From contig OY782877.1 of the NCBI GenBank assembly GCA_963678445.1, positions 3,178,503 to 3,242,502 of the forward strand: a stretch of DNA of 64,000 bases, written 5' to 3'. Shown piece after piece: positions 7,812 to 63,390 of the stretch. Numbering within the stretch: the first letter of the stretch is position 1; the number at the start of each line of letters is the position of its first letter. This DNA is from Candidatus Hydrogenedentota bacterium. Lineage in GTDB: Bacteria > Hydrogenedentota > Hydrogenedentia > Hydrogenedentales > G963678445. A program made the translations under genes and the position numbers. A model generated the notes under the pieces. The model saw only the letters and a program-made list of their open reading frames with translations, was not told the DNA's origin and did no database searches.

Positions 7812-7913
7812 CCAGCGTTACCGTCAAGTGGTCCAGCGACCACAAGCAATATTTATGGTCCTGGGCGTAGTGTCCGCCGCAAAAAAACTAAATTTTATGT
7901 TAGCTTTTCAAAT
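7812..7913. repeat. REP/MITE-like intergenic repeat, copy A (GTGGTCCAGCGACCAC palindrome)
   Basis: Contains gtggtccagcgaccacaag ... atggtcct ... ccgcaaaaaaa ... ttttatgttagcttttcaaatttgagtcgcc. Same family as copies at 13357, 19984, 20241 and 45466. Confidence 0.8.
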
Positions 7914-7990
7914 TTGAGTCGCCAAAGTGGTCCAGCGACCACAAGCAAGTGGCCAGCGCCACCGGCGATATCTATATGGTCCTGACAGGC
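7914..7990. repeat. REP/MITE-like repeat, copy B (both palindromes)
   Basis: aaagtggtccagcgaccacaagcaagtggccagcgccaccggcgatatctatatggtcctgacagg. Tandem to copy A. Confidence 0.8.
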
Positions 7991-8073
7991 GTTTGGGAAG
8001 CGGATTATGGTAACTTGGTGTCTTGCACCTGGAATATAAATTGGCTATGCTACGTTATTAAAAACTAAGCGCT

Positions 8074-8126
8074 TCAGCGACCGGTGACCAGCGCCACCGG
8101 CTAAGTATGGTCCTTGACGTCCCGGA
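8074..8126. repeat. REP/MITE-like repeat, partial copy C
   Basis: cagcgaccggtgaccagcgccaccggctaagtatggtccttgacg. Carries the second palindrome plus the atggtcct box. Confidence 0.6.
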
Positions 8127-8209
8127 CCGGAACAAAGTTTTGTTATTTTTAAGGTAACTTTTGGGATGTCATTGTTTGGGATAATGAGTCACTAACCAGA
8201 GGAATTTTT

Positions 8210-9436
8210 TTGATGAATGTTTTGCACACCCTCCGATGGCTGAGTATCTCTTTATGTGTGGTGCTTGTGTTTGGTATGTCTGCTTTGGCACAGGAGCCGG
8301 ATGCTGCGCCAGATGCCAAGGCTTTGACACAAAAGGCGATGACGTTTTTTTCGAATCTGGACAGTATGTCGGTCGATTTGGCGATGGGACTGCATGTAGA
8401 GCGCGGTGACAAGATTCATGACCGGTCTATTGATGCCCATTTTGCGTTGCGGGGTGAAAAGGAAGTCTATTTGACGCTTAAAGACCCCAAGGCGAAGGAA
8501 GAACTTTTCGGCAATGGTGAGACGATAACGATCTACCATTCGGCTCAAAAGAACTATATGGTGCATGAATTGGCTCAAAAGCGCTGGCAAACTACGGCGC
8601 TTCTTGGTGGGGATGCGTTTCGACCTGCTATGTTAATGATAGCGTATCTTGTTCATAATGAATCAACCCTTTTTAATGGAGTTGATGAGGTTAAGTATAT
8701 CGGGCAGGAGGCCTGTGGGGATGATGGCGCTTTGTGTGATCATGTGCGTCTGATTGGTGCAAGTCAGGATGTGGATTTATGGCTTGCCGTCGGTGATGAG
8801 CCGTTACCGCGACGGCTGCAGGTGGTGCTGGATAAGCAGTATCTTGCCCCTGGTGCGCAAAAACCTGTTTTGCATGTGGAGATCCGTGTTGATTTGACCA
8901 ATTGGACGGTTAATACGATTTTGCCGGACGATATGTTTACGTTTACCCCACCCGAAGGCGTTACCCGCAAGCTGAGCCAGGAAGAGATCCAGGAGCGTGC
9001 AGCACATCGGGGGAAACCGGCCCCCCAAGTCGAATTGGATTTGTTGGGCGGGGGTAAGTTGGACCTCGCAGCGCATAAGGGAAAGAATATTGTTATTCTG
9101 GATTTCTTTGCAACCTGGTGTCCGCCCTGTCGTGTCGCCATGCCGATACTTGCCCAGATAGCCCAGGACTATGCGGATAAGAACGTTGTGCTGTATGGGA
9201 TTAATCAGGGGGAAGCGGCTGAAAGAGTGCAGGCCTTACTGGATAATATGAAGCTCTCCATGACGGTTGCGCTGGACAAGAATGCGCAGTATGGTAAACT
9301 CTATGGCGTGCAGGGTATTCCGCATATGGTCATCATTGACAAAGAGGGTGTTGTGCGTCAGGTTCACCGGGGTGCGCCGGAAAACCTTAAAGAAGAGGTT
9401 AAGAAGGACTTGGATGCGCTGCTGGAGGAGGGGTAA
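8210..9436 (+). CDS. Secreted LolA-like (DUF2092-type) domain fused to a TlpA/ResA-like thiol:disulfide oxidoreductase
   Basis: Signal peptide (LSISLCVVLVFGMSALAQ). C-terminal thioredoxin fold with a WCPPC active site (FFATWCPPCRVAMP). Confidence 0.7.
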   Translation: MMNVLHTLRWLSISLCVVLVFGMSALAQEPDAAPDAKALTQKAMTFFSNLDSMSVDLAMGLHVERGDKIHDRSIDAHFALRGEKEVYLTLKDPKAKEELFGNGETITIYHSAQKNYMVHELAQKRWQTTALLGGDAFRPAMLMIAYLVHNESTLFNGVDEVKYIGQEACGDDGALCDHVRLIGASQDVDLWLAVGDEPLPRRLQVVLDKQYLAPGAQKPVLHVEIRVDLTNWTVNTILPDDMFTFTPPEGVTRKLSQEEIQERAAHRGKPAPQVELDLLGGGKLDLAAHKGKNIVILDFFATWCPPCRVAMPILAQIAQDYADKNVVLYGINQGEAAERVQALLDNMKLSMTVALDKNAQYGKLYGVQGIPHMVIIDKEGVVRQVHRGAPENLKEEVKKDLDALLEEG

Positions 9437-9465
9437 GAGGTAGTAGTGTTTTATATGCAATAGGG

Positions 9466-9497
9466 ACGGGGCGGCTCATTCGAGCCGCCCCGATTTT
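9466..9497. terminator. Bidirectional hairpin terminator between convergent genes
   Basis: acggggcggctc-attc-gagccgccccg followed by attttgtt. Lies between the + gene ending at 9436 and the - gene ending at 9519. Confidence 0.6.
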
Positions 9498-9518
9498 GTT
9501 AGGAAGAAACGCATCCAC

Positions 9519-10307: not shown

Positions 10308-10664
10308 TCATGTACTCCTTCTTGGGTTGGCAAAGGGCTTACCCATTTACTACGTTGTTGTGCCGAAACGCTAATCCTTGACGGCCCTTGAATGGGTATA
10401 GTTGCCTTTCGTTGCGGCACATAATATACCATTTGGTACTATTGATTCAACAAAAAGTGGTTTTTATGGCTTTTTTTTGTTTTTTGTTTACAAAAAATAC
10501 AAAAATGTAAGTTTTAGGTTGGGTGGAGGAGTCAGTTTCTTTATGGTAGCTTTTGAAGAATCTATCCCTAAAAAGTGGGAAAGACTTGATTCTTGTGTTG
10601 TGGTGGTGTTGAATACGCAAAGGAAGTAGTGAGTGATTTATATACAGTACACGGGAGGATGCAT

Positions 10665-12558: not shown

Positions 12559-13281
12559 ATGAGTAGCAGTGGTGTTGAGGCTGGCTTTGAGCAGTGGAAC
12601 GTATTTGAAAAGTTGCGTGAAAATAACCGCATGTACCATAACGAGGTGTATCAAACCCTTGCGAGTGTACTGCAGGAGCGTAGCCATCCCGAATTGCGTA
12701 TGTTAGACTTGGGATGCGCGGATGCGAGTGATATCGCGCGTGTGCTTGCGCCGTGTACGATTGCGGAATATATCGGTATCGACAATGTTCCAGCAGTACT
12801 CGACCAGGCGCGTGCCAATCTCGCATCGCTTTCCTGTCAGCAACGATTCATCGACGGCGACTATTTAACGGGTTTGGAACGAGTGGCAGGTCCTATAGAC
12901 GTTATCTGGCTTGGTCTGTTCCTTCACCATCTTTCCAGCGCACAAAAACGGGATTTCTTCCAGCGTGCAATTCAGTTGCTGTCCCCCGACGGCATTCTGC
13001 TGACCCATGATCCGATTCTGGAAGCTAACGAGAGCCAGGAAGCGTTTCTCGAGCGCATTGCCGGAAGAGCTAAAGCATACTGGGAGGAGTTTTCCCCCAC
13101 AGAACAAGAAGTGCTTTTCCGTCATTGGTCCCACCACGGCCATCAGGAATCCTGCGCATCGCTCAAAGAGATGGCCCTCGAAGCCGGTTTTGAACAGATG
13201 GAAACCCTGTGGCGTTCTCCGGATAACGTGTATGCGCTACTGGCCTTTTATCCTTCTTTTTCAGGAAAGGATGACGAATAA
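12559..13281 (+). CDS. Class I SAM-dependent methyltransferase
   Basis: Motif I LDLGCADAS, Rossmann-like fold, 240 aa. Confidence 0.7.
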   Translation: MSSSGVEAGFEQWNVFEKLRENNRMYHNEVYQTLASVLQERSHPELRMLDLGCADASDIARVLAPCTIAEYIGIDNVPAVLDQARANLASLSCQQRFIDGDYLTGLERVAGPIDVIWLGLFLHHLSSAQKRDFFQRAIQLLSPDGILLTHDPILEANESQEAFLERIAGRAKAYWEEFSPTEQEVLFRHWSHHGHQESCASLKEMALEAGFEQMETLWRSPDNVYALLAFYPSFSGKDDE

Positions 13282-13356
13282 TATAGTTCTCATGGTGGTA
13301 AACAAATTGGGCTGTTTTTACGATACCGCAGCAAGTTATTTATGAGTGCGTTATCA

Positions 13357-13458
13357 CTAAAGTGGTCCAGGGACCACAGCCAAAATGTATGCTCCTTGAC
13401 GTGCGTGGCCGCAGTGGAAAATTTGTTTTTTATGACAGCTTTTCAGAATTAAGTTACT
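13357..13458. repeat. REP/MITE-like repeat, copy D
   Basis: ctaaagtggtccagggaccacagcc...atgctccttgacg...ttttttatgacagcttttcagaatt. Confidence 0.8.
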
Positions 13459-13480
13459 AAAAGATGGGGAGTTACTTTGA

Positions 13481-14788
13481 ATGAATGCTGTTTCGATGAA
13501 ATTGCCCAAGGCGATAATTCAGGATGATCCGTGGGCGGATGACGTATTAGAGCGGAAACAAATTGCGGAAGCGCTTACCAACATGCTTGCGCATGAAAAG
13601 AATGCGCTGGTCGTTAGCCTGAGTGGAAGCTGGGGGACGGGTAAAACTTTTTTACTCGAACGATGGCAAGCCGAGTTGGAAAAGGCGAAACGGAAAGCCA
13701 TCTATTTTAATGCATGGGAAGACGATTATTGTGGCGATCCACTGGTCGCAATCATAGGCCAAATTTGGCACTCCCTGAAAGGTTCTGATTGGAAGGAGAT
13801 AAAAGAATCTATCAAAGAGACGGCAATGCCTTTGTTTCGGAAGACAGTATTCAACGGACTCAGAACCATTACCCAAGGTGTTGTTGATTTGGATGAAGCA
13901 TCATTAAAATCGATAGCTGAACACGCCTTTGATGAATATATAAAGGAACGTAACCCAAAGGACAATCTCAAGAAACATCTTGCCGAAATGGCAGAAAAGG
14001 TGTTTGAGGATACGGGCTTTCCTCTGGTCTTTATCGTCGATGAACTGGATCGGTGTCGCCCTACCTTTGCCATTGAAGTGCTTGAACGTATCAAACATAT
14101 TTTTGACATTCCCCATATGGTTTTTGTGCTTGGCATTGACCGTAACCAACTCGCTTCCTGCATCCGGGCAGTATATGGAGATATAGATGTAGACGGATAT
14201 TTGCGTCGCTTTTTTGATTTTGAATTCACTCTTCCGCCTGCGAATGTAGAGGTTTTTTGTAAGCACTTGATGAAAAGACATGATTTGCCTGGTTATTTTC
14301 AGGAACTGGGCAAGACGGGAAAAAAAGGGTGGGCCCAAACTGCATGCGCTGGATTTGAGGAGTTTCTACCAAGTTTTTTTAATTGTTTTTCCCCCTCCTT
14401 AAGAGATATTGAACATCTTATTCGTATGTTTTTCTTTACCGTAAAAAACATGGATAGCTACAATGAAATTTATCCTGAAATTATTTCTCTTTTGCTTATT
14501 CTGCGGATAAAGAATTATTCATTATATCTTCAATATATACATGGTAAGTGTTTGCCAAAAGATATTTTAAACTATGTTACTGATTTTTTGGGGAATACAA
14601 AATTCTCTTCGCGTCACGATTTACTAGCAAAGTTTGAATCGTTTATATGCGAAAGCTTTCCAGACAGTGCAGCTTCTAATGATGAGGGATATCAAAGATA
14701 CGATGCTCTTTATCGGGATGTCCGCCGCGAAGTTGTGTTGCTGCATGAAAATATGGAACTAGCTTCTTTGATACAGAAAAAGTCTTGA
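13481..14788 (+). CDS. KAP-family P-loop NTPase
   Basis: Walker A LSGSWGTGKTF and Walker B FIVDELDRC, matching the KAP NTPase pattern. The 3' half of the gene is markedly AT-rich compared with its neighbours. Confidence 0.75.
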   Translation: MNAVSMKLPKAIIQDDPWADDVLERKQIAEALTNMLAHEKNALVVSLSGSWGTGKTFLLERWQAELEKAKRKAIYFNAWEDDYCGDPLVAIIGQIWHSLKGSDWKEIKESIKETAMPLFRKTVFNGLRTITQGVVDLDEASLKSIAEHAFDEYIKERNPKDNLKKHLAEMAEKVFEDTGFPLVFIVDELDRCRPTFAIEVLERIKHIFDIPHMVFVLGIDRNQLASCIRAVYGDIDVDGYLRRFFDFEFTLPPANVEVFCKHLMKRHDLPGYFQELGKTGKKGWAQTACAGFEEFLPSFFNCFSPSLRDIEHLIRMFFFTVKNMDSYNEIYPEIISLLLILRIKNYSLYLQYIHGKCLPKDILNYVTDFLGNTKFSSRHDLLAKFESFICESFPDSAASNDEGYQRYDALYRDVRREVVLLHENMELASLIQKKS

Positions 14789-14867
14789 TGATGGTATGGA
14801 AGCGCGATTTTTAAAAAATAGTCAATAAATTAAATTATATGGTGGGCGAGTTTTCTATGCTGGGCTT

Positions 14868-15695
14868 TTATGTCGTCGGGGTGAGGGATTGGTGGTGGGC
14901 GATGAGGCGTTGGAGGCTGCGGTAGTGGGTGGGGAGTTTTTGGAGGATGGCGCGGTAGCGGGGAATGGCTTTTTCGGGGTGTTGGTTGAGTTCCAGTTCG
15001 AGGGCGGCGAAGAAGTCGAGGTCGGCGTTCTGCGCGTTTTTTTTGCGGGCGTTGTCGAAGGCTTTGAAGGCTTCGCGCCAGAGTCCTATCTGGAACAGGC
15101 GTTGTCCGTTGCGCTGGTGTTCTATTGCGTTTTTAGGGGCGGGGCTCAATATGTCTTCGTAGATTTTTTGGCGTAGTTCGGGGTAGTGGCTCCAGTAGCG
15201 CGTGAAGCAATCCTGTGCTTTTAGCAGTTCGCCTTTTTCGAGGTGGAGCTGTCCGAGCCAGTGCAGGGCGGTAATTTCTCCATTTTCAGCGCCTTTTTGA
15301 AAATTCTTTTGGGCTTCCTGGGGTTGGGCGCTGTAGAGTGCGAGTTGTCCGTGTGCGGTTTTGGAGAGGGTGATTTTGTGTTGCAGCAGCAGCTCGTGGA
15401 GGCGTAGCTGGATGTTGGGCAGGGAAAGCAAGTTGTCTGCGAAGGTGTTGATTACGTCTTCGGCAATGCTGGCGTCGGTGGCCAGGGCGCGTTCAAGGGT
15501 GCGTTGGCATTCGAAGAGGGCGTTTTGCTGAAAGCTGGTATGGGCCTGTTGGAGGAGTGTGTCTGCGTCGTGGCGACGGGTAAGGGCGGTGCCGTATTGG
15601 CGCATGAGGGTGAGGGCCAGCAGGGCGCAGAGGGTGATGAGAACCAGCAGGGCGATGTTGTAGGCGATGTAACGTTGTAGTTTGCCGAAGCGCAT
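14868..15695 (-). CDS. Membrane-anchored TPR-repeat protein
   Basis: N-terminal TM helix, then TPR-like repeats (ALHWLGQLHLEKGELLKAQDCF...). Last gene of the minus-strand polysaccharide block. Confidence 0.5.
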   Translation of the reverse strand: MRFGKLQRYIAYNIALLVLITLCALLALTLMRQYGTALTRRHDADTLLQQAHTSFQQNALFECQRTLERALATDASIAEDVINTFADNLLSLPNIQLRLHELLLQHKITLSKTAHGQLALYSAQPQEAQKNFQKGAENGEITALHWLGQLHLEKGELLKAQDCFTRYWSHYPELRQKIYEDILSPAPKNAIEHQRNGQRLFQIGLWREAFKAFDNARKKNAQNADLDFFAALELELNQHPEKAIPRYRAILQKLPTHYRSLQRLIAHHQSLTPTT

Positions 15696-15705
15696 GCAGG
15701 GATTC

Positions 15706-18822: not shown

Positions 18823-19863
18823 TCAAGCACGCGGTGTAGTGGGGGCGGAGGGGGGCGCGTCCATGTATGTCTTGACCTGTTCTATACAGTTTTTCCAACG
18901 CAGTTTGTCTTGCTCGATATATTGTGCCATCTTGGCGACGAATTCGGAGGTGCGTTGGTGTGCGTCCTGGATTTTTGCTGCCAGATCCTCAGGGTCATGA
19001 TTGGTAAACAGACCGTATCCGTCAAATTCGAGTTGCACCACCCGCCAATGGGAGGCTACAAAGGGTTTGCTCAGCGCCAAGCATTCCCGGATAGACCATA
19101 GCAGGGTGTCGTCGCGCAGTGTCAACGTAAGTACTACGTCGCAGGCATCCATGAGTTTGAGGAAAACCGGACGGGGAAGCAGATCGGTCAGGATGACGTT
19201 GTCGGGGAGTTCAGGGAGAGGTTCTTGGAGTTTTTTTGGGTTTCCTGTGAGAAAAAAAGTTGTATCCGGCATGCGTTTGGCCGTATCAATCACCTGGAGA
19301 TAGGCGTCGTCCACAGCAAAGCGATTCACCATCAGCACATTTCGTTTGCGGGCCTGTAACGCTTTTTCCCACGGTGTGATGTCTGCAGAATCGTCGCAAA
19401 TTTCCTTCCGGGTAACGGCGGGCGATTTGAGCAGCGTCACATTACGGGCGCGCCAGTCTTGCAGTAATTCCTGGTTGGCTTCATTATGCGCCAGATTGAC
19501 CGTCGCGTTGCGACAGAGGGGGCGGTGTAACCAGTGGAAACGCTGCCAGCGTGGATCAATAAAAGAGGTGTGCATGTCGTTGGCATAGCGTGCGCCCCAT
19601 AGTTTGCAGTAAAGAGCAACCATGAGCGGTGCGAATACGGGCGGCACCTGAACGAATACTTGCTGGGGACGTATGCGGAAAAGATGGTATAGTGTGTGCA
19701 CGGTTTGCGCTGCGTAGCGTAGTGGTGTTGGCAAGGGTATGCCGAGGATGCGCTCAATATAGGAGTGGACCGCTTGTGCTTCTAAAGCGTCGCAGAGGCG
19801 CTGTCCACGACCGCTTCCCCCTTCTGGGGAACACCAGAATATAAAAACTTTTTTCAGAGCCAC
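18823..19863 (-). CDS. Putative glycosyltransferase/polysaccharide-modifying enzyme (family not resolved)
   Basis: 346-aa ORF at the head of the sugar-transferase/aminotransferase block. Rossmann-like alternation, no definitive motif recognised. Confidence 0.4.
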   Translation of the reverse strand: MALKKVFIFWCSPEGGSGRGQRLCDALEAQAVHSYIERILGIPLPTPLRYAAQTVHTLYHLFRIRPQQVFVQVPPVFAPLMVALYCKLWGARYANDMHTSFIDPRWQRFHWLHRPLCRNATVNLAHNEANQELLQDWRARNVTLLKSPAVTRKEICDDSADITPWEKALQARKRNVLMVNRFAVDDAYLQVIDTAKRMPDTTFFLTGNPKKLQEPLPELPDNVILTDLLPRPVFLKLMDACDVVLTLTLRDDTLLWSIRECLALSKPFVASHWRVVQLEFDGYGLFTNHDPEDLAAKIQDAHQRTSEFVAKMAQYIEQDKLRWKNCIEQVKTYMDAPPSAPTTPRA

Positions 19864-19889
19864 GACAGTAAAACGCTTTCCGTTTGAAA

Positions 19890-20075
19890 CACCAAGTGGT
19901 CAGCGACGGTAAGAACTCTATCTATTGCCTGCGGTCGCTGGACCGTAATATTAGTAACTTAAATTCCAAGAAGTTGTCATGAGTTGTCATAAAAACGAAA
20001 TTTTTGCTGTGGTCAGGGATGGTAAGGACCATATCTCCTGGGTGTGGCCCTGGCCACCTTGTGGTCGCTGGACCA
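19890..20075. repeat. REP/MITE-like repeats, copy E: one interrupted unit plus one full unit
   Basis: gtggtcagcgac at 19896-19907 and gtcgctggaccg at 19934-19945 flank a 26-nt insert. Then a full unit 19984-20075: gtcataaaaacgaaatttttgctgtggtcagggatggtaaggaccatatctcctgggtgtggccctggccaccttgtggtcgctggaccactttagtgac. Confidence 0.8.
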
Positions 20076-20240
20076 CTTTAGTGACTACCGCTGTTTTCGC
20101 AGAGGAATACCCTCCCCTGGCTTTGCTATAGTCGAGGGCGACGCGTCCCGCGTCATTCCACTATTTTGCAAGTAGTATACAGATTTATACAGCCCTAACG
20201 GTACCCCATTATGCTATACGAAATGGCATATTGCGTGCCG

Positions 20241-51009: not shown

Positions 51010-51050
51010 ACTTTGTCCCTTCGCATTTTCATGATCTGCGGGGTGGTGGT

Positions 51051-51956: not shown

Positions 51957-51972
51957 TTCAGGCTCCTTATCC

Positions 51973-54900: not shown

Positions 54901-55872
54901 GGCCTCGGCGTTCAAAACGCTTTCCAGGCTAAGTGTGCTATACGTGGCCAGTGCGCAAACTACGGCGTAGTCGGGATGGGTAAAGTTGGGTAGCTGTGCC
55001 GCCACTGTGTCGTTGTATTCAAGCCAGAGGGCCAGATTGGATAGCCATGCGCTCCGGGCTTCCGCATAGAGCGGATGGCTCTGGTCCTCCAATACGCGCT
55101 CGAGTAGGAAGAATTCCAGCACGTCGGGTATGTGGTAGCCTTTTGTATCCGGGTTCAGATTAAAGAGTCCGGTAGTATCAATAGCCGTCTGATCGATGTT
55201 CAGCGTGGGGAGAAATTGGCTTATAAAAGGACGTGTCAAAAAATCCCAATCAACATCGTCAATTTGGTTCAGGATGTTGTTGTAATCGGCTAGCAGCAAT
55301 GCCAGTGTGTCTATGGGACCCAGCGTAAGATCGGGAGGATTGAGGGAGCGATCGATACCGCGCAGGTAATCAACAAAGTGCTGCAGGTCGCCCGGCAGGT
55401 GATGTTTAACAAATACGGCATTTACACTGGTATTCGTCGTTAAGGGGAAGGTGAGCGGCCATGCATACTGCGCTGCACCGGTATCCACCGACCAGTGGTC
55501 AAAGCGGTACCCGATAGACGGCGTTGCTTTAAGGGTGAGGGGCGTGTTCCAGCCAAAGGTGTAGGGCGAATTATAGGACACACCGCCAGATTCGACAGTA
55601 ACGTCGCCTTGGGTCGTGTCGCAAGTAAGATTCAGCGTATATTGGTCAAGCTCAAACGTGGCGTATGCGGTTATATCCCTGTTCATGGTAAGCACCACCG
55701 TACTGGGTTGGGTAGCGAGATCCCCCGTCCATCCCGTGAAATGATAATGAGGATTGGGCATCGCGCTAAGCGTGACGGAGTCGCCGTAGGTATACACTAT
55801 AGGGAAGCTATCCGTATTCGGCGGCGTCGCGGTGACATGACCGCTTCCCTTACTCAAGTCGTTTCTATTCAC
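51973..55872 (-). CDS. Giant (1299 aa) multi-domain secreted/surface protein with a C-terminal Cys/His putative hydrolase (toxin-like) domain
   Basis: Repeated GYxFxGW/HW InlB-B-repeat-like modules (HYHFTGWTGD, GYRFDHWSVD, GYAFAGWCGKGD). Thrombospondin-type-3/dockerin-like Ca-binding loops (DGDFDGDGFTNLEEY, DCDNDGLVNIGEW). A distinct last ~160 aa (…YNCIAWSVGRTDKW…HAYKIDDCGGNW…). Confidence 0.7.
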   Translation of the reverse strand: MNRNDLSKGSGHVTATPPNTDSFPIVYTYGDSVTLSAMPNPHYHFTGWTGDLATQPSTVVLTMNRDITAYATFELDQYTLNLTCDTTQGDVTVESGGVSYNSPYTFGWNTPLTLKATPSIGYRFDHWSVDTGAAQYAWPLTFPLTTNTSVNAVFVKHHLPGDLQHFVDYLRGIDRSLNPPDLTLGPIDTLALLLADYNNILNQIDDVDWDFLTRPFISQFLPTLNIDQTAIDTTGLFNLNPDTKGYHIPDVLEFFLLERVLEDQSHPLYAEARSAWLSNLALWLEYNDTVAAQLPNFTHPDYAVVCALATYSTLSLESVLNAEALYIANLVQRYGIVPQPPSCWEFTCLDDVFHQDGDFDGDGFTNLEEYLFQDVEDGFASFTTWTDTPGFFHALALSTSNQLVSKEMLLSVNDPEATGTPPSVKVTLQDEGNGALTPFEGTKYILTYSPLDWPPNSTQTDCPDCEVNTLPLTAQADTDWTFLYWQDQWHNTLRIANFNNMAFQQNTGGIPFPDIQLPLDADVILTAFFEERSELTDLDLIADLGIFLENIGELTSAQEVSNMQWDRGGLFFDEAGNPIHTENGIPDAAEFALLEHVLLHPEINLSETGGVSNKLVYKHFMQNHARATTDISPWCNPLINPQPVECTAAIINVIASYMTLGYYGATDMICHEIEELTGIELDSSNYAIESLQHFAPENDCDNDGLVNIGEWHYTLDSVQPASLNAPKAASSTSLGDAKNYGSNASDGIAPSGYQPPPGECVTCENDTCNGATTPITLENVLLDPDGNDGPEPERVAIRITGKTNDCEIDTIGENSTVPLRVGREVTVTAETINPAFATFSCWHAPDLPIDGSDKSVETFVVPKSYEGYTIKANVIEKWETTLFLPAAQIAENVGLHLLSEGSISPVYDESDIYQGVNITTPQNESVTISFFLPPEGKGRWELYDNGVINDVISYGATIQLPGKSELTALEPIISSSPIPSTAKTYTSSSTIGVLPIIVGGTRILPPVTCSSSCDVTAIPVPHSNTLGYQGVSWETTPSSCGAHVSYKAKSAHTLDLGYSRCKGYVTSDPAQKYYNDNDIVQIKARPLPGYAFAGWCGKGDAWGYATSDTNGWTRVFLPNTLSNLKKSTIYLTMTESRSITPVFQPICACGIPNAACAFLGYYTEGEEKLVPVCKTDEPTDRYNCIAWSVGRTDKWITYFYPSSDPKYVSVDAEYGNNDGKIKNDDWDAFYAEHGFEHCATREGARVGLVFDENNPKKGLHAYKIDDCGGNWGSKRGKEERITHGDTWLKEYGPPTRYYR

Positions 55873-56379
55873 TTCAAGTTTTCTTTCCTGTCTGGGATTA
55901 TATAATCCAGACCAGAAATTGATATACGAGCGGAAAGGGCACTTTAGACTTACGCAATACCCCCCTCACGGATGTAGGTCCGGGGGGGCTTTTTTAGATC
56001 TGTCGACAGACATCCCCGATAACGTCATAGAAACTCATTTTCTTCGGAGTATCCCGTGTCTGAGATAATATTGCTTGTGAAATACATCAGCTTCATTCAA
56101 TAGTTGGTGGACCTTGGGAGTGTTCTTTATCTGATATCCAATTATCATAGTGATTGGAAGCGCAGGAAGACTAACAAAATTTATCGAGAATAGCTCCATA
56201 TAACATATTTGAAATCAGCTACATATGAAGGGTGTTCTGAAATAGAATTCGGTGCTTTGTTAGCACTTGACATCAATGAGTGCTAAGCGTTATACTCATA
56301 ATTATCCTAAAAAGGGTGCGTATTAAGCGCCAGAGATAGCTTAGCAAAACAGAGATTATAAAGGACTTAACGAAACCAC

Positions 56380-57363
56380 ATGACAGAACCTTTTCAGATA
56401 CTCTCGTTAGATGGCGGCGGCATCAAGGGCCTATTTTCTGCTGCTGTGCTGGCACATATCGAGAAGGACTTGAAAACCCGAATCGTAGACCATTTCGATT
56501 TAATCGTCGGCACTTCTACCGGTGGAATCATAGCTCTGGCCCTAGGCCTAGGAATATCGCCCAAGGAGATAGTTGAGTTCTATGTAGAAAAAGGACCAAA
56601 GATTTTTCCGAAGGGATGGTTGTTTCGGCCTGTAAGAGGACTTCAACATTATGTCATGCGAAAATTCTCTGCTAGGGGACTTGAGAAGGCTCTTCAAGAA
56701 ATCGCTGGCGACAAGACTCTGGGAGACTGCCAAAAGCGTTTAGTAGTTCCTTCCTATAACCTTCAAGAGAATGATGTTTACCTTTTCAAGACCCCCCATC
56801 ATAAACGCTTTCGAAGGGACTGGGAAATTCCTGTCTGGAAGGTGGCCCGTGCGACCTCCGCTGCTCCTACATACTTCTCGGCATACAGAGGGATTGATTC
56901 TGTCCGTCTCATTGACGGAGGTGTGTGGGCAAATAATCCGTGTATGGTGGGTGTAGTCGAAGCTATGAGCACACTCTCTGTTGATTCTGCCTGCCTGAAA
57001 CTATTTAGCATTGGTACTTCAGATGGAGTAGTACGGCGCTCCTCGCTACTTGATTGGGCAGGGCGTTTTCTTTGGGCACGTCACGCCAGCGATGTGCTCT
57101 TGGACGCGCAGTCAAGAGGAGCCTTCACCCAAGCTAAACTCATTTTAGGCACGGACCGGACGTACCGCATCAACCCTAAGGTACCTGCGGGGCTGTTCGG
57201 TCTCGATAAATTGTCAACAAAAGAACATCTAGGTATGGCAGCTCACCAAAGTAGAAAGTTTATACCTATCTTTGAACAACACTTCGCAGCCCACACCGCC
57301 CCAAAGTATCAACCGTTCTATGGCCGAAACTCAGATACCGACGAAACACCGACAACTGATTAA
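56380..57363 (+). CDS. Patatin-like phospholipase (CBASS CapV/CapE-type effector)
   Basis: Oxyanion GGGIKG, nucleophile elbow GTSTGG (GxSxG), catalytic DGG (LIDGGVWANNP). Confidence 0.85.
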   Translation: MTEPFQILSLDGGGIKGLFSAAVLAHIEKDLKTRIVDHFDLIVGTSTGGIIALALGLGISPKEIVEFYVEKGPKIFPKGWLFRPVRGLQHYVMRKFSARGLEKALQEIAGDKTLGDCQKRLVVPSYNLQENDVYLFKTPHHKRFRRDWEIPVWKVARATSAAPTYFSAYRGIDSVRLIDGGVWANNPCMVGVVEAMSTLSVDSACLKLFSIGTSDGVVRRSSLLDWAGRFLWARHASDVLLDAQSRGAFTQAKLILGTDRTYRINPKVPAGLFGLDKLSTKEHLGMAAHQSRKFIPIFEQHFAAHTAPKYQPFYGRNSDTDETPTTD

Positions 57364-57371
57364 GGAAACAT

Positions 57372-58565
57372 ATGATGGAGACAAAACAAAAAGTGATTGA
57401 GTCGTTGGTAGAATCGCTTGAGGTTTCGCCTAGCACGTATGAGTTAGCCGAAAGCAGGTATAAGGATTTGGGGGTGTGGCTTCATGACGCTTCCAAAGCA
57501 AAGGTAGCGCCATATGATCCACATGTTTTTCCCCAAGGCTCTATTCGGCTTGGCACAGCCATTCGCCCCTTGGATTCCGACCATTACGATTTGGACCTAG
57601 CGTGCGAATTGCGAGCAGGTATCTCGACGAATTCTCACAGCCAAGAAGATGTAAAGGCTTTTATTGGCGGGGATCTTGAGAAATATCGAATCGAGCGAAA
57701 TATTAAGGATAAGCTTGATGAAAAACATCGCTGTTGGAGGCTAAACTACCAAGATAGTCCTAGATTCCATATGGACACCGTTCCATGTATCCCACACGAT
57801 GAAAAAATACGACAACATCTTTTTGAAAGCATGAAAACGGGAAGCATCCAGACAGAACTCGCTGATAACATCGCCAATCAAGCAATTGCTATCACTGATA
57901 ACAGGCGGCCAGATTTTTCCATGCTCTCTCCCAACTGGCCTATCAGCAATCCCGAAGGATATGCTATTTGGTTTGAATCCCGCATGAGACAAGCGAAGCA
58001 GCTTCTCGAATGTCGGGTGGCTTCGGCTCTGGTAGCAAGTATCGAGGAGCTTCCTACTTACCAATGGAAATCCCCACTTCAGCGATGTGTGCAGATTTTG
58101 AAACGGCATAGGGACCAGATGTTTCGTCAGAATGGCGATGCCAAACCTATCTCAATAATCATAACGACTCTGGCCGCTCAGGCCTACCAGGGTGAACGCG
58201 ACATATACGAGGTGCTTGCGCAGATTTTGAACTCAATGGGTAACTTTGTACGCCCTACAGCGCCACGTGTCCCAAATCCTGTAAATCCGAAAGAAGACTT
58301 TGCCGACAAGTGGGGCACGCTAGAAGGAAAGCGGCTTGCACTTGAAGATAACTTCCGGCTTTGGCTGCAACAAGCAAAGGCAGACTTTGAAAACCTTTCC
58401 TCCGCAAGAACACGCCAGCGGGTGGCTTCACTGACTACTCATAAGTATGGAGTGAATATCAGCGAAGAACGACTTGAGCAAATCCCAGGGCTTTCTTCAT
58501 CTGCCCCGACAATTGCGTCTTTTAAGATCGCCGAATCGTCACCCCCAAAGCCATGGCAAAAGTAA
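57372..58565 (+). CDS. cGAS/DncV-like nucleotidyltransferase (CD-NTase, SMODS-type)
   Basis: Pol-beta-type minimal NTase signature GS-x9-D-x-D (QGSIRLGTAIRPLDSDHYDLDL) plus a third acidic residue (FHMDTVPCIP). 397 aa. Starts 9 nt after the patatin gene (RBS aaggaaa) and overlaps the next gene by 13 nt. Confidence 0.7.
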   Translation: MMETKQKVIESLVESLEVSPSTYELAESRYKDLGVWLHDASKAKVAPYDPHVFPQGSIRLGTAIRPLDSDHYDLDLACELRAGISTNSHSQEDVKAFIGGDLEKYRIERNIKDKLDEKHRCWRLNYQDSPRFHMDTVPCIPHDEKIRQHLFESMKTGSIQTELADNIANQAIAITDNRRPDFSMLSPNWPISNPEGYAIWFESRMRQAKQLLECRVASALVASIEELPTYQWKSPLQRCVQILKRHRDQMFRQNGDAKPISIIITTLAAQAYQGERDIYEVLAQILNSMGNFVRPTAPRVPNPVNPKEDFADKWGTLEGKRLALEDNFRLWLQQAKADFENLSSARTRQRVASLTTHKYGVNISEERLEQIPGLSSSAPTIASFKIAESSPPKPWQK

Positions 58566-59221
58566 AAAAAACTTGGACGGATATTGATCTACAGGGATTT
58601 CTACGCAAGTTCCCTGACATGTCTGTAGTACCGCAGAAAGAAGGTTCGTTGGTTCTTGAGGGTTGTTTTAGCTTTGAGGCATCAACAACTTCTCATGGCT
58701 CTGAGTCTGGTACTTACCTTCTTCGAATCAAAGTTCCACCCTCATTTCCTGCAGAGCTTCCTCGGGTTCAAGAACTCGGAAAGCGCATACCTAAGAATCC
58801 AGAACACCATATCAATTCCGACGGTTCACTCTGTTTGGGATCGCGTATCCGTCTACTTGTTCAAATCTCAAAAGAGCCGACTCTTTGTGGCTTCGCTAAG
58901 AATTGTCTAATACCATATCTCTTTGCCATCACACGAAAACTAAAACATGGTAACGCACTGGTATTCGGAGAGCTTGCTCACGGCAACACAGGAGAACTCA
59001 ACGATTATGCTGATTTGTTGAATCTTGACAATCCCCCTGCGGTCCTTTGCGCATTGAAGTATCTCGGAATGAAAAAGAGACGCGCCAACAAACTACCTTG
59101 TCCATGTGGCTGTGGCTTGCGCCTTGGCAAGTGTAGATTCAACTTTCATTTACGCGAACTCCGTTGTCTTGCTGAAAGGGATTGGTTTCAGTCGGTCCTA
59201 AGCGATCTGGAGAAACAGTGA
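58553..59221 (+). CDS. E2 ubiquitin-conjugating-like protein (CBASS Cap2-short type) with C-terminal Cys cluster
   Basis: UBC-like active-site region PEHHINSDGSLCLG (HPN-like...G-x-LCL) and a C-terminal CPCGCGLRLGKC. 222 aa, with no E1 or JAB partner present. Confidence 0.55.
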   Translation: MAKVKKTWTDIDLQGFLRKFPDMSVVPQKEGSLVLEGCFSFEASTTSHGSESGTYLLRIKVPPSFPAELPRVQELGKRIPKNPEHHINSDGSLCLGSRIRLLVQISKEPTLCGFAKNCLIPYLFAITRKLKHGNALVFGELAHGNTGELNDYADLLNLDNPPAVLCALKYLGMKKRRANKLPCPCGCGLRLGKCRFNFHLRELRCLAERDWFQSVLSDLEKQ

Positions 59222-59284
59222 TACTGTAGCGCTAAGAGACATCAGAATGCGAATACTGATCCTTACACGCTCCTTTAAGCTAGT

Positions 59285-60805
59285 CTAAAAGAGGGAGGCC
59301 CCCCGGCTATGCCGGGGGATACTTACTAATAACGTCTCCAACTGCGTCAGGCCCGACAAATACGACAAATCCGAGAACTCACCCGTCGCGGATATCTGGT
59401 TTTCACTCAGATTCAGCGTCGTCAGGTTCTTAAGATCTTCCAGAAAATCAATCTCAGAAAAAGAATTGTTCGACAAATCCAACGTCTGCAAATCCAGGCA
59501 ATATTGAATCCCTTCTATCGAAGTAATTCCCAACCCCGACGCATCCAACGAGGTAAAACCTTTGTTTATCAAACCTTCCCAATACAACGTACCTGTCAAT
59601 TTCCCCACCGCCGCACGCACCGCCGTTTCCAAACGCATATCCACAAAATACGTCGTCGCATCCGGTGACGGCAAGGCTACCATCCGCACCTGCACATCGG
59701 AATTCATCGTCAAAGTCGTCGGATTGTCGTAAGCATGGACCGGGTCCATTCCGGGAACAGTCACCTCGAAATACTCAAGAATCCAGTCCTCTTCCGGAAC
59801 CGCCATAATCTCCACCGAAGCACCCGCACGATACTTCTCCGCAATCGGATACGGATATATCCCCAAGCCCGACCAAGACCGTGTCATCGTATAAAACGTT
59901 CCCGCAGGAACCGTCTGCACATCCAACGCCGCCGCATAATACGCCGCAAAATTCTGCTCAAACGTACTCAGCACCGCCTCCTCCTGCCACTCCAGCAGAT
60001 TACTGAACGTATCCCCATCCACATCCCCCTGCGCAGAAATCAGCGGCACCAACGATGTATCCAGCAAGATAGAAAAATCTTCCTCCTCTGCAAACTCAAT
60101 CCCCAACTCATCCGAAAACACCGTGGCTATAAACACAGAAAGCGGATCTCCCAACACCGCATACGCCGTTAACACCTCAACCACCCCCGCAGGCACGCCT
60201 GCCGGGACCGTCGCATCAGCAAACAACGCCGCCACCGCCAACCAACGCGTTGCCAACGCCACATGCGTAAGCCCACCCGAAGCCGACAAATCCACCGTAT
60301 CATCCTGCAACACATCCTCCAACACCAAAAACTCCGCCAGATCCGGAAAACCATTCGGCTCCCCATACGCAACCCCATCCTCATCCAACGACGCACCATT
60401 TAGATCAACCGCCTCTGCGCTATCCGGCAAATCCAAAAACGTTGCAAACGTCGCCATCGAAGCCCGCAGATCCAGATTATCAAACTGCCCACCCGTCTTC
60501 GCCTCCAGAAAGCCCCTACCCCTACTACCCTTTTCCTCCATCAACATCGCGCGCCGCTCAGGATTCGAAAAACTTTCCCAATCCACCGACATACGATGTA
60601 CCCGATCCAATTTTCTCGCCTCCTCCTCCGTGATCCCCTCCATATCCGGCAAAATCTTACGCAACCCCTGCTTCGCACTCGTAAAACGCGGCATCCCCAT
60701 TCCCGAAACTCGAGCACGCCCCTCCAATACCCCCTGCGACCCCGCCTTCCCCTCTCCCGCACCCCGCTTCATCAGAGCCCCCTTCCCTGTATGCCGCAAA
60801 CACAA
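59285..60805 (-). CDS. Leucine-rich-repeat protein sharing N-terminal modules with the giant protein
   Basis: C-terminal LRRs (LDLSNNSFSEIDFLEDLKNLTTLNLSENQIS). N-terminal segments FPDLAEFLVLEDVL and DGDTFSNLLEWQ parallel IPDAAEFALLEHVL and DGDGFTNLEEY of the giant protein. Confidence 0.55.
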   Translation of the reverse strand: MCLRHTGKGALMKRGAGEGKAGSQGVLEGRARVSGMGMPRFTSAKQGLRKILPDMEGITEEEARKLDRVHRMSVDWESFSNPERRAMLMEEKGSRGRGFLEAKTGGQFDNLDLRASMATFATFLDLPDSAEAVDLNGASLDEDGVAYGEPNGFPDLAEFLVLEDVLQDDTVDLSASGGLTHVALATRWLAVAALFADATVPAGVPAGVVEVLTAYAVLGDPLSVFIATVFSDELGIEFAEEEDFSILLDTSLVPLISAQGDVDGDTFSNLLEWQEEAVLSTFEQNFAAYYAAALDVQTVPAGTFYTMTRSWSGLGIYPYPIAEKYRAGASVEIMAVPEEDWILEYFEVTVPGMDPVHAYDNPTTLTMNSDVQVRMVALPSPDATTYFVDMRLETAVRAAVGKLTGTLYWEGLINKGFTSLDASGLGITSIEGIQYCLDLQTLDLSNNSFSEIDFLEDLKNLTTLNLSENQISATGEFSDLSYLSGLTQLETLLVSIPRHSRGASLF

Positions 60806-61097
60806 CTTTTAATTGCCGGAGCAATAACAAGTACAAGGATTGCCTGCCGAATAGAGTTCGATAAGTGCGGCCACGCACTTATGATTTCCGCCAGATCGCC
60901 ATAAATCTGGTGCATACATATAGCACGCTCAGATGTGTTCTCTGTGTGTCTTGAGTGTCGCGGTTCTGTAGTCGAAGTGTTGTTTCGGCAGTCCGAACAC
61001 AGCTTATAACTGTTTAGATTTGTTGTAGTTGTGTGTTCGCATGTGGTTGAAGTGTTGAGATTCTGTGAGGATGTGTTGATAGAATTAATTGCATTTT

Positions 61098-61117
61098 GAT
61101 TCCCGCCTCCTCCACCA
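61098..61117. repeat. attR-like direct repeat of the tmRNA 3' end (island right border)
   Basis: gattcccgcctcctccacca versus tmRNA 46692-46711 gattcccgccgcctccacca (19/20 identical, with tt.gattcc extending the match). Confidence 0.65.
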
Positions 61118-61269
61118 TGCAAACACTTGAGGCCCTTGAGGTTATAATAGCCTCAAGGGCGTTTGTGTATTTGTTGGGTGCGCGTGTGCAGCCATAGCAC
61201 CCATCACGTATTCCCCTGCTTCTCCCAACGAAGTTTTTGTTGTGCTCAGGGGGGGGATGACCATATTTT

Positions 61270-61314
61270 CTGGGTGGCCCCCTGCCCCTTTGTGGTCGCT
61301 GGACCGCTTTGGTA
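61270..61314. repeat. REP/MITE-like repeat, partial copy I
   Basis: ctttgtggtcgctggaccgctttggtaagg. Confidence 0.6.
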
Positions 61315-61461
61315 AGGTGGCCCCGGAATCCCTCCTTGACAAAAGTTTCAGGGGGTGAGAAAATATGCGCTGTTTTTCGGCGCGTTTGTCAGAGTATTTT
61401 TGTTTGCGCGTTGCTCTCTTTTTGCGTCAATCAGGGCAATATCTGTGAGAAAGGAATTGTT

Positions 61462-62655
61462 ATGTGGAATAGAATCAGCGTCGGAATCCTGCCTGCTCGC
61501 GCACTTATTGTACTGTGTCTCCTCTCCGCGATTGCGGCGGGGCCGGCTCAAGGTGTCAGTATTGAACAGGATCCCTCTGAATACCCCCGTTCCGTGGATC
61601 TCTTTGTTCGAGGATCGGATGGCATAGCGCTACACCGTATTCCTGCCCTCACGGTAACCTCAAAAGGCACCTTGATCGCGGTTGCCGATGCGCGTGTGGA
61701 TGAAGGCGATGATCTTCCAAACAACATTGATCTCGTCATGCGCCGGAGCTTTGATCTGGGCCGAACCTGGACCCCCAGCGAGGTAATTGTCGATTTCCCC
61801 GGTACAGAGGGCGCGGGAGATGCCAGCCTCTTGACCGATCGTGAGACCGGTCGGGTCTTCCTTTTCTACACCTATGGTCCGGAGGGCATTGGCTCTACGC
61901 AAAGCCAGCCAGGACTTGATGGCCCAACGGTTCAACTCCAAATCATCCACAGCGATGACGAAGGGGCCAGCTGGTCGGAAGCACTTCACCTGAATCCGCA
62001 AGTAAAAGACCCCGCATGGAGTGCGGTCTGGTCCTCCCCGGGTCACGGCTTTCAGACCCCTTCGGGACGCCTCTATTTCCCCCTTTCACGCAAATCCGAT
62101 ACCCTGTATTCGCACTTTATCTATAGCGATGACCATGGAGCAACTTGGAAAATCACCGCCCCTGCGGGTCGTAACACAAACGAGTCCATGGGCGTTGTCC
62201 TGGATGATGGCCGCTTGATGGCCAATATGCGTAGCATGGACGGAAAACATCAGCGGATAGTTTCTGTTTCCAGTGACGGTGGCAAGACCTGGAGTGCCCA
62301 GTATCATGACGCCACCCTGATCGAGGCCGAATGTCAGGCTAGCCTGATTCGCTATTCCTGCCTCTCCGCCGGAGATGATAAAAATCGCCTGCTCTTTGCC
62401 AATCCCGCGAGCACGAAACGGGAAAACATGACCATCCGCCTCAGTTACGACGAAGGCCAGACCTGGCCGATTTCCAAGTCCATCTGGCCCGGCGTCGCGG
62501 GATACTCCGCGCTCGCGGTGCTCCCGGATGGATCCGTGGGGCTCTTTTACGAACACGGCGTACAGCACGCCACCGATCAACTTGCCTTTGTTCGCTTCAC
62601 CCTGGAATGGCTCACCAGCGGTAAAGACAAAGGCTTTAAGCCTAGGAAACAGTAG
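61462..62655 (+). CDS. Exo-alpha-sialidase (GH33, BNR/Asp-box)
   Basis: Start re-assigned to MWNRISV (signal peptide). RIP motif (HRIPAL) and five Asp-boxes (SFDLGRTW, SDDEGASW, SDDHGATW, SSDGGKTW, SYDEGQTW). Confidence 0.85.
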   Translation: MWNRISVGILPARALIVLCLLSAIAAGPAQGVSIEQDPSEYPRSVDLFVRGSDGIALHRIPALTVTSKGTLIAVADARVDEGDDLPNNIDLVMRRSFDLGRTWTPSEVIVDFPGTEGAGDASLLTDRETGRVFLFYTYGPEGIGSTQSQPGLDGPTVQLQIIHSDDEGASWSEALHLNPQVKDPAWSAVWSSPGHGFQTPSGRLYFPLSRKSDTLYSHFIYSDDHGATWKITAPAGRNTNESMGVVLDDGRLMANMRSMDGKHQRIVSVSSDGGKTWSAQYHDATLIEAECQASLIRYSCLSAGDDKNRLLFANPASTKRENMTIRLSYDEGQTWPISKSIWPGVAGYSALAVLPDGSVGLFYEHGVQHATDQLAFVRFTLEWLTSGKDKGFKPRKQ

Positions 62656-62836
62656 CAGGCAGGGAGAAACGCAAAGGAAAACTTTGAAAATCCGAGGGAG
62701 GCATGGCGGGAAGCAACGAAGGATACAGAGTGGAACGAGCCGGGATGAATAATTCCGGTAAAGCGCGTCCGGCATCTAAGGAGTTGCATGTTCCTTTTTT
62801 AAAAAGTAGTTTTTTTGACTTCTTCCCCGATATTTT

Positions 62837-62901
62837 CCTAGAGCGTTTTAACTAAACGACTATGCATTTTTAGCGCATAATCGTGTAGTTAAAACGCTCT
62901 A
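62837..62901. promoter_or_regulatory. Long perfect inverted repeat (16-bp arms, 33-nt spacer) at the 3' end of arsC
   Basis: ctagagcgttttaact ... agttaaaacgctctag. The right arm includes the arsC stop codon. Confidence 0.5.
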
Positions 62902-63345
62902 GTTGTTCAATGCTTCAGGTAGGGTTTCGACAAAGGCTTTGATTTGGTCTCGGATGTTTCTATAGCATTCCAACTGTTCCTCTTCGGATGCGCCTTGCTC
63001 TGCAAGTTCTTTGGCCATCTTTGGCGGATCGGCAAATCCGACATGTACTACTTTGCAGTTGCCAGGGAAGAGTGGACAGGTCTCGTGAGCGTGCCCGCAA
63101 ACGGTGACTATTGCATCCAGTTTGAGGTCTTTGAATTCATTGATGTGTTGGGACTTCTGCCTTGAAATATCAACACCTACCTCGGCCATCACGCTTACAG
63201 CGTTTGGATTGAGGCCGTGTGTTTCGATTCCGGCTGAATAGGCCTCGATGGAGTCACCTTTCAGATGACGGGTCCAGCCTTCTGCTATCTGGCTACGGCA
63301 TGAATTCCCGGTGCAAAGGAAAAGTACCTTTAGTTTTTCGCTCAT
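62899..63345 (-). CDS. arsC: Arsenate reductase (LMW-PTP family, thioredoxin-coupled)
   Basis: CTGNSCRS P-loop (LFLCTGNSCRSQ), 148 aa. Confidence 0.85.
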   Translation of the reverse strand: MSEKLKVLFLCTGNSCRSQIAEGWTRHLKGDSIEAYSAGIETHGLNPNAVSVMAEVGVDISRQKSQHINEFKDLKLDAIVTVCGHAHETCPLFPGNCKVVHVGFADPPKMAKELAEQGASEEEQLECYRNIRDQIKAFVETLPEALNN

Positions 63346-63364
63346 GGTTTATTTCCTTACTATG

Positions 63365-63390
63365 TTAAAGCGGTCCAGTGACCGCTTTAG
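63365..63390. repeat. Degenerate REP-like palindrome, copy J
   Basis: aaagcggtccagtgaccgcttt. Palindrome AAAGCGGTC-cagt-GACCGCTTT in the 51-bp arsC intergenic spacer. Confidence 0.5.

Follow-up and report, generated by a model that had tools for sequence, protein, structure and literature searches.

Why does the same short palindromic sequence recur at eleven places in one chromosomal neighbourhood? We addressed this question for a 64,000-nucleotide stretch of contig OY782877.1 (hereafter the window) from a Candidatus Hydrogenedentota bacterium. An earlier note on this DNA had described a dense family of intergenic repeats with two conserved palindromes and had suggested either repetitive extragenic palindromic (REP) sequences or miniature inverted-repeat transposable elements (MITEs). 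We found that the repeats are non-coding units of ~100-130 bp with defined ends, which insert 3′ of the tetranucleotide CTAA, stack head to tail, gain and lose internal modules, and vary in presence and absence among strains, with neither inverted termini nor coding capacity. This layout points to an enzyme of the HUH type, and we hold with middling confidence that the repeats are small non-autonomous transposons mobilised in trans by such a site-specific single-strand transposase.

As the search tool for the family, we used an nhmmer profile built from eight copies. It recovered all 11 listed copies and fragments in the window with E-values from 4e-36 to 7e-3, and added a weak tail fragment at 10537-10570; independent repeat detection arrived at the same repeat families. 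Seven elements lie in the plus and four in the minus orientation, and full copies share 67-89% pairwise identity. The palindrome GTGGTC-N4-GACCAC, with at most one mismatch, occurs seven times in the window against an expectation of 0.10, a count equalled in none of 100 shuffles, and GTGGC-N4-GCCAC occurs ten times against 2.3 expected, four of these within elements. The density, the occurrence in both orientations, the tandem arrangement and the half-copies reported earlier were all borne out. The claim that the elements are always intergenic holds nearly throughout; it fails for two extra palindrome modules, GTGGCGCAAAAACCAC and GTGACCAGCGTTAC, at 7783-7826 on the plus strand, upstream of the first copy, which extend into the open reading frame (ORF) at 5664-7811, covering its final ~30 nt with the stop codon, and are arranged differently in a related strain (L083).

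When the copies are aligned together with their flanks, similarity begins at a CTAA and stops at another CTAA. The 5′ CTAA is followed by AG (1-2 nt) and by hairpin 1, GYGGTC-CAGY-GACCRC, whose GGTC/GACC core never varies. The stem of hairpin 1 has six pairs, of which the outer one is often mismatched, and a 4-nt loop; only one solo left end (copy K) reaches 9-10 pairs. After hairpin 1 come up to two more palindrome modules of ~20 nt in direct orientation, either GTGGC-N4-GCCAC or GTGAC-N4-GTCAC, giving one to three G+C-rich modules per unit, spaced every 20-22 nt. All three palindrome types are self-complementary (GTGGTC/GACCAC, GTGGC/GCCAC and GTGAC/GTCAC). Downstream of the modules lie a looser hairpin, TGGTC-N12-GACCA, an A-tract and a T-tract, and finally an unstructured tail of 36 nt composed of GTTTTTTATGACARCTTTT, 6-8 variable nt and AGTYACTAA. 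The tail is conserved in a block-variable-block pattern (ATGACA, 17 nt, YACTAA), and all full copies finish with ..AGTYACTAA, the conserved motif forming the last bases of the right end.

The two ends of a unit are not inverted copies of each other. When the outermost 35 nt of the two ends were compared in seven copies, exact inverted matches reached at most 4-6 nt, compared with a shuffle mean of 4.7 and maxima of 7-9. Nor do the units fold as a whole: minimum-free-energy z-scores of five copies on both strands range from +0.6 to -2.1, no better than shuffles, and a consensus fold of the units retains only the local stems. With Rfam 15, only the transfer-messenger RNA (tmRNA) matches the window at the gathering threshold, and nothing relevant appears at E<=1 over 19800-20450.

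The rule of insertion became apparent from related strains. Comparison contigs were taken from two ENA long-read assemblies of the same species group (~99% and ~95% nucleotide identity), so that the readable species sequence, comprising the window, ~10 kb on each side and some alternative segments, amounts to ~95 kb. A copy at 6462-6577 of contig L085 is precisely missing from the syntenic gap of contig L084. Written in the orientation of the element, the empty site has the sequence GGGTTAGACTAA|TATGCAG, i.e., ..GACTAA|TATG.., with a single (A)CTAA; the filled site reads GGTTACACTAA|AGTGGTCC...GGAATTTAAGTTACCG|ATGTG, with ..CACTAA before the insertion and AAGTTACCG at the right end. The segment missing in L084 matches the boundaries drawn from the family alignment and directly follows (A)CTAA. 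Insertion thus takes place 3′ of CTAA, and the non-autonomous mobile behaviour suggested by the earlier note is seen here as one syntenic site, filled in one contig and empty in the other. CTAA also precedes the hairpin in nearly all copies of the window and of the metagenomic relatives described below, whose flanks are otherwise random.

The left flank of several copies resembles a right end over more than the CTAA, reading TCACTAA, GTCACTAA or TTTCAGTCACTAA, and the copy at 7618-7723 of L083 carries the 15-nt sequence TTTCAGTCACTAAAG at both ends. This resemblance fits insertion beside an existing end. As the CTAA closing one unit also serves as a target, such insertions would produce the head-to-tail arrays in which units are joined through a shared CTAA, as seen at 7820-8195 (copies A-B-C) and 19896-20084 (copies F-E).

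At otherwise corresponding positions, strains differ by entire units and entire modules. The A-B-C array has three units in the window vs. two in L083, where copy C also carries one additional 20-nt palindrome module; the F and E pair corresponds to one hybrid unit in contig L002, and the L002 ortholog of copy G lacks the 16-nt hairpin-2 module. The orthologous copies of G and J are only 76% and 80% identical, whereas adjacent spacer or flanking DNA is 95.5% identical, which suggests replacement or conversion among copies. Fragments of both kinds exist, left-end-only in copies K, J and E and tail-only at 10537.

The family is dispersed, since related strains carry copies beyond the window as well. 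In ~30 kb of their flanking or alternative sequence, the profile search found three further copies and one fragment, at 7618-7723 and 3504-3564 of L083, 6462-6577 of L085 and 16213-16262 of L084. A motif confined to the window, which would have spoken for local segmental duplication, was thus not what we found, and the view of the family as a dispersed, lineage-restricted and non-coding one stands. The host lineage is poorly sampled: its U32 peptidase has one match at 99% identity and the next at 63%, and the best named relatives are Ignavibacteria/Melioribacter for the U32 peptidase (55-58%, genome loci) and Candidatus Hydrogenedentes for the efflux adaptor (52-53%). The exact hairpin-1 motif has no match in 185,579 GTDB species genomes or in JGI metagenomes, and a looser pattern gave seven single chance-level matches in viral contigs, none confirmed by the profile. 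The profile itself had no match in 1.44 Mb around U32 peptidase genes from 80 GTDB genomes, nor in the loci of the two homologues next in similarity (60-63% identical), which also hold no analogous repeat family. Across these comparisons, the 5′ part of the unit is lineage-restricted.

The tail has a different distribution. A metagenome scan with 19 nt of it returned more than 120 loci, and 57 of 121 occurrences continue past the query as N6-TAAGG(C/T)ACTAA, in the same register as in the window species. The L002 copy of G reads GGAATT-TAAGGTACTAA, an 11/11 match to this continuation. The metagenomic families begin with CTAA, 1-2 nt and a G+C-rich hairpin of other sequence (CCGAC-AA-GTCGG or CCCGG-TAAA-CGGG) and have a modular body closed by the same tail, in discrete size classes of 105-219 nt; the sequence 5′ of the left CTAA is random. 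The 36-nt tail recurs in other families of the CTAA-plus-hairpin kind on unrelated metagenome contigs. These contigs have a mean G+C content of 44% and encode no protein more than 39% identical to one of the window species; one encodes an alanyl-tRNA synthetase to which submitters gave the label Pseudomonadota or Candidatus Tharpellaceae. Within the metagenomic families, the last tail bases pair with an upstream segment in one of two states, AAGTGCCT/AAGGCACT in 26/26 and AAGTACCT/AAGGTACT in 17/17, with no mixed case; the window family has no counterpart of this long-range stem.

The neighbours of the metagenomic elements are housekeeping genes, and a search for an autonomous partner found no multi-copy protein across the loci. 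The distance from left to right end is 105-219 nt, except for two pairings in one locus of 339 and 2,171 nt, the latter span containing a membrane protein. Ten metagenomic loci gave nothing relevant in Rfam at E<=0.1, and a full-text literature search for the tail strings found no relevant paper. A Sel1-repeat ORF beside one copy, which matched a metagenomic locus, was set aside as mere repeat-protein similarity. In two metagenomic loci (L153 2708-2775 and L177 2500-2580), the tail of a full element is directly adjoined by an inverted left end standing alone (..AAAGTTTTCCGGCTGGTCGGGTTA) or by a second copy in inverted orientation; these inverted left ends resemble the palindromic solo left end K of the window.

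A CTAA beside the hairpin end, a CTAA ending the tail, and the lack of inverted termini and of evident duplication together follow the logic of HUH single-strand transposons, among them IS200/IS605 with its 'peel and paste' route, IS91 with its rolling circle, and REP/RAYT. In IS200/IS605 elements, a target tetranucleotide flanks the left end and a terminal tetranucleotide closes the right end (PMC6006769; TAM and TEM in PMC10055086), and IS91 makes no duplication, has its target tetranucleotide next to one end and a related tetranucleotide for cleavage at the opposite end, and gives one-ended events (PMC13181058). Gain and loss of REP modules has also been modelled on HUH chemistry in bacterial interspersed mosaic elements (BIMEs) (PMC3333891). 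By analogy, a transposase encoded elsewhere in the genome would most probably excise one DNA strand of a unit and reinsert it, and size variants would arise when the repeated modules recombine or are cleaved at alternative points. An IS200-type transposase or a REP-associated tyrosine transposase (RAYT), as the earlier note had proposed, would be the best mechanistic lead, and effects on neighbouring genes are probably incidental.

Several observations weigh against this HUH-type reading. No transposase was found in the window by Pfam scans, in the gene tables of the related loci or beside the metagenomic relatives, and the ~95 kb of readable species sequence contains no Y1_Tnp match. Only 1-2 nt separate CTAA from the foot of hairpin 1, leaving no room for a separate guide tetranucleotide of the IS608 style. 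The outer pair of hairpin 1 does not covary significantly (T-A in four, C-G in four, C.A in three and T.G in two). The tail has no conserved hairpin, 12 tails from six subfamilies yielding three invariant pairs and -0.5 kcal/mol, whereas IS200/IS605 and IS91 elements have a palindrome at each end. The insertion rule is read from a single filled/empty pair, whose right-end CTAA reads CCGA and which is compatible with a 4-bp target duplication; the right-hand CTAA is otherwise continuous with the conserved tail, with CTAA at both ends and once in the empty site. The density of about one copy per 6 kb refers to the ~95 kb of readable sequence.

Among known systems, gene-less IS200/IS605 derivatives (palindrome-associated transposable elements, PATEs) are close in that they, too, have no inverted termini, a left-flanking motif (TAM), a motif ending the right end (TEM), a subterminal left hairpin and a size of 100-220 nt. 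Unlike PATEs, for which subterminal hairpins of ~20-25 nt at both ends are the criterion, the window family has no right-end hairpin; its left hairpin lies only 1-2 nt from the target motif, its left and right motifs are identical (CTAA), and neither a cognate tnpA nor tnpB was found in the readable sequence. The layout also fits IS91/ISCR elements (mini derivatives) in its target tetranucleotide next to one end with a related tetranucleotide for cleavage at the opposite one, its two ends of distinct function, and its head-to-tail or read-through products. IS91 makes no target duplication; none is evident in the window family, although its one filled/empty pair is also compatible with a duplication of 4 bp. 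IS91 targets CTTG or GTTC instead of CTAA, and it has palindromes at both ends where the window tail has none; no Y2 transposase was seen in the sequence read here. We know of no gene-less IS91 derivatives of 100 nt.

Canonical REPs assembled into BIMEs, i.e., palindromes bound and cut by a RAYT (TnpA-REP) encoded elsewhere, would also account for dense, short, G+C-rich intergenic palindromes with 4-nt loops that are lineage-specific, stand singly (as in copy K) or in clusters, and fall into three self-complementary types. The number of modules varies among strains as the HUH-based model of BIME diversification predicts, and TnpA-REP cleaves at a C|T dinucleotide (PMC3333891), the element boundary here being CTAA. 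A REP is nevertheless defined by an unpaired 5′ GT[AG]G (or CGTC) tag 0-2 nt from its foot, a basal stem of 7-20 fully paired nt and a loop of 2-5 nt (PMC6006769, PMC3733652), whereas hairpin 1 stands on CTAA(AG), carries neither of these tags (GTGG is confined to the stem itself) and has six pairs. The modules are direct instead of alternating as in BIMEs or REPINs, the long conserved non-palindromic tail of 36 nt is foreign to REPs, and insertion is defined, 3′ of CTAA. REPs are found mostly downstream of genes (PMC3733652), while three of the seven element-bearing gaps in the window separate divergent genes, and no RAYT gene was seen in the ~95 kb. In its canonical form, the REP reading of the earlier note is therefore unlikely. 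The other suggestion, a MITE, would in its classical form descend from an insertion sequence of the DDE type with CTAA as its duplicated 4-bp target. The IS5 group, for instance, duplicates YTAR. Nearly every copy in the window and in the metagenomic families has CTAA at both ends, the empty site has one, and the size of 100-220 nt and the non-coding, intergenic nature would suit such an origin. Yet the ends are unrelated in sequence, with no terminal inverted repeats beyond chance and no whole-element hairpin, and the left flank that in several copies resembles a right end beyond CTAA fits insertion beside an existing end or a longer target and not a simple 4-bp duplication, which makes a classical MITE quite unlikely. 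MITEs of the Correia and enterobacterial repetitive intergenic consensus (ERIC) type resemble the window family in being ~100-150 bp long, intergenic, often just upstream of genes and variably present among strains, but they have long terminal inverted repeats and form one long hairpin, and Correia elements duplicate TA. BOX elements of Streptococcus pneumoniae and the mycobacterial interspersed repetitive units (MIRUs) of Mycobacterium are modular intergenic repeats in which the copy number of an internal module varies (boxB) or units stand in tandem at dispersed loci; their sequences are unrelated, they lack both insertion at a defined CTAA and a tail common to different phyla, and BOX folds as a whole.

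A host regulatory module, such as a promoter, a 5′ untranslated region, a terminator or a protein-binding site with palindromes about two helical turns apart, might be kept in place by selection instead of transposition. Five copies (C, D, H, E and the copy at L085 6462) have a same-strand start codon 10-35 nt downstream of their tail end, several metagenomic tails have GGAG immediately before an ATG, the palindrome modules recur every 20-22 nt, and the tail is conserved in the ATGACA, 17 nt, YACTAA pattern. YACTAA nonetheless lacks the final T of a -10 hexamer, no promoter-like site matches this pattern, and neither sigma-70-like promoter sites (25 vs. 19.6 +/- 4.7) nor terminator-like sites (26 vs. 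23.2 +/- 5.0) are enriched; only one palindrome is followed by a T-run, and the terminator or attenuator role envisaged in the earlier note found no backing. The elements occur in either orientation in gaps between co-directional or divergent genes, the neighbouring genes are functionally unrelated, a same-strand ORF starts within 150 nt downstream of the tail in 33 of 57 metagenomic relatives, which is about the level of random orientation, and the orthologous copies diverge faster than their flanks. We consider selection for such a role very improbable. The units might alternatively be small structured RNAs, for example guide scaffolds of the omega-RNA type from gene-less IS605 derivatives, with the tail binding a protein and the guide lying past CTAA. 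Gene-less PATE-like elements often encode trans-acting omega RNAs (PMC10055086), and the tail covaries perfectly between two states in the metagenomic relatives. Those two states may, however, reflect a single event separating two lineages, and the long-range stem is missing from the window family, whose whole-element folds do not exceed shuffles; no Rfam match and no tnpB or iscB gene was seen. A structured-RNA function thus has little probability.

Site-specific single-strand transposition therefore remains our preferred reading, and the family nonetheless fails at least one defining feature of each of the IS200/IS605, IS91, REP and classical MITE classes. In its workings it comes nearest to gene-less IS200/IS605 or IS91 derivatives and to REP clusters. 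What is new is the unusually clear set of insertion rules and the undescribed conserved end, whereas an intergenic repeat family is in itself an ordinary category; the unexpected feature is the tail found on unrelated contigs. A bolder and more doubtful proposal, which we put forward tentatively, is that the window family could belong, as one branch, to a so far undescribed superfamily spanning phyla, whose gene-less elements each have CTAA, a variable hairpin and an invariant end of ~36 nt (GTTTTTTATGACARCTTTT-N6-TAAGKYACTAA). Such elements might be mobilised by a transposase new to ends of this kind, from a new HUH clade or as another site-specific enzyme, or the end might act as a trans-acting guide-RNA scaffold. 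The rules, namely insertion 3′ of CTAA with one hairpin end and one conserved but unstructured end, are clean and testable and match no curated class, and the recurrence of the tail in other uncultured bacteria offers a handle for finding the transposase by co-occurrence. Repeats this dense shape intergenic regions, supply recombination substrates and can bring sequences next to start codons. Since units and modules differ among strains at 95-99% identity, the profile can also serve in practice as a marker to type strains and resolve assemblies in a poorly sampled lineage.

The individual copies can be placed as follows. Copy A (7820-7923, plus; E=4e-22), with a perfect hairpin 1 at 7828-7843, is the first full unit of the three-unit head-to-tail array. 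Copy B (7922-8060, plus; E=2e-10 over 7922-8016) consists of hairpin 1, hairpin 2 and a degenerate tail ending at ~8060 with ..CGTTATTAA, where L083 has ACGTTACTAA. Copy C (8061-8195, plus; E=7e-24 over 8061-8175 and sequence) has its left CTAA at 8065-8068 and a CACTAA end at 8190-8195, 17 nt 5′ of an ATG at 8213; it extends to 8195 because of a 14-nt insertion inside its tail. The weak tail-only fragment (10537-10570, plus; E=0.18) lies between divergent genes for a HAD hydrolase and an alcohol dehydrogenase and is kept at the same place in three related strains (L001, L002 and L083). Copy D (13354-13460, plus; E=3e-25 and sequence) is a full unit with CTAA at 13357-13360 and 13457-13460, and its right end lies 20 nt 5′ of the ATG of a KAP-family NTPase. 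It is part of a strain-variable slot between a methyltransferase gene and a TPR gene (13253-14868), which holds copy D and the KAP-family P-loop NTPase in the window, a low-GC ORF of 214 aa without a repeat in L001, and only 57 nt in L002.

On the minus strand, copy E (19896-19945; E=1.4e-6) is a 3′-truncated unit directly downstream of copy F (19956-20084; E=3e-32), a full unit that has hairpin 2 and, inside its tail, a duplication of 10 nt. What had been described at 19890 as a unit split by a 26-nt insert is in fact a looser third hairpin plus hairpin 1 of the truncated copy E. Copy G (20242-20362, minus; E=4e-36), a full unit with hairpin 2 and 88% identical to copy F, has its hairpin end ~35 nt upstream of the ATG (20396) of the U32 peptidase on the opposite strand. 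The 155-nt spacer between F and G (20087-20241), 95.5% identical to L002, contains a GACGCG-TCC-CGCGTC hairpin with no Rfam match at E<=1. Copy H (26899-27019, plus; E=1e-20 over 26899-27018), a degenerate full unit kept in L001 and L002, stops ~10 nt before the ATG (27030) of the GH97 gene. Copy I (45445-45568, plus; E=2e-25 over 45464-45567) is a full unit that lacks hairpin 2; a 19-nt duplication, AGCGGTCCAcataggctaa, comes before it in the window but not in L085 (compared with L085 17817-17914). Copy J (61226-61315, minus; E=5e-19) is 3′-truncated. Copy K (63365-63390, no strand assigned; E=7e-3 over 63365-63385 and sequence) is the solo left end, with hairpin 1 lengthened to a 9-10-bp palindrome, TAAAGCGGTC-CAGT-GACCGCTTTA.

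The genes around these copies are ordinary chromosomal ones, including a resistance-nodulation-division (RND) efflux system, polysaccharide synthesis genes, U32 and M48 peptidases, GH97 and tmRNA, among others. Integron attC, integration host factor (IHF), DnaA, sigma-54 and Bacteroidetes-type promoter motifs were rejected as candidates for the repeats on by-eye comparison. Across positions 1-35000, GC skew reaches very high values (+0.15 to +0.36) and flips sign with gene orientation; because it tracks the coding strand rather than an obvious replication arm, the direction of replication cannot be read from it. In L083 11182-17462 (ctg9178l assembly), AcrB-like and Wzy_C/TPR genes are broken into several ORFs, either by frameshift errors of the assembly or as pseudogenes.

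The earlier note had also placed one copy on each side of a tmRNA island, and copies I and J indeed flank the tmRNA region; they do not bound the island. This 14.4-kb island (46712-61117) is an insertion within the 3′ end of the gene for tmRNA (46351-46711) and is bounded by a 20-nt direct repeat of the 3′ end of ssrA, GATTCCCGCCGCCTCCACCA at 46692-46711 and GATTCCCGCCTCCTCCACCA at 61098-61117, copy J lying ~110 nt beyond its right edge. In strain ctg9178l (L085) the island is absent and the tmRNA is followed directly by TGCAAACACTTGA, and both copies I and J are present there, the ortholog of J at L085 16473-16561. Pfam recognised no integrase in the island.

Within the island, a defence operon resembling a cyclic oligonucleotide-based antiphage signalling system (CBASS) occupies 56380-59221 and comprises a patatin-like phospholipase (56380-57363), a DncV-like/SMODS nucleotidyltransferase (57372-58565) and a 222-aa ORF with no Pfam match (58553-59221). 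Two tandem paralogous ORFs on the minus strand (50101-51099 and 51051-52001), 88-94% identical in nucleotides over ~470 nt and lacking a Pfam match, adjoin two further large Pfam-less ORFs and a 1299-aa Flg_new_2/DUF7689 protein. Outside the island, a near-perfect inverted repeat of 28 nt lies between sialidase-like and phosphatase genes at 62838-62902, a position taken in L085 (11448-14789) by an McrBC-like restriction system with AAA_5/nSTAND3 and McrBC genes.

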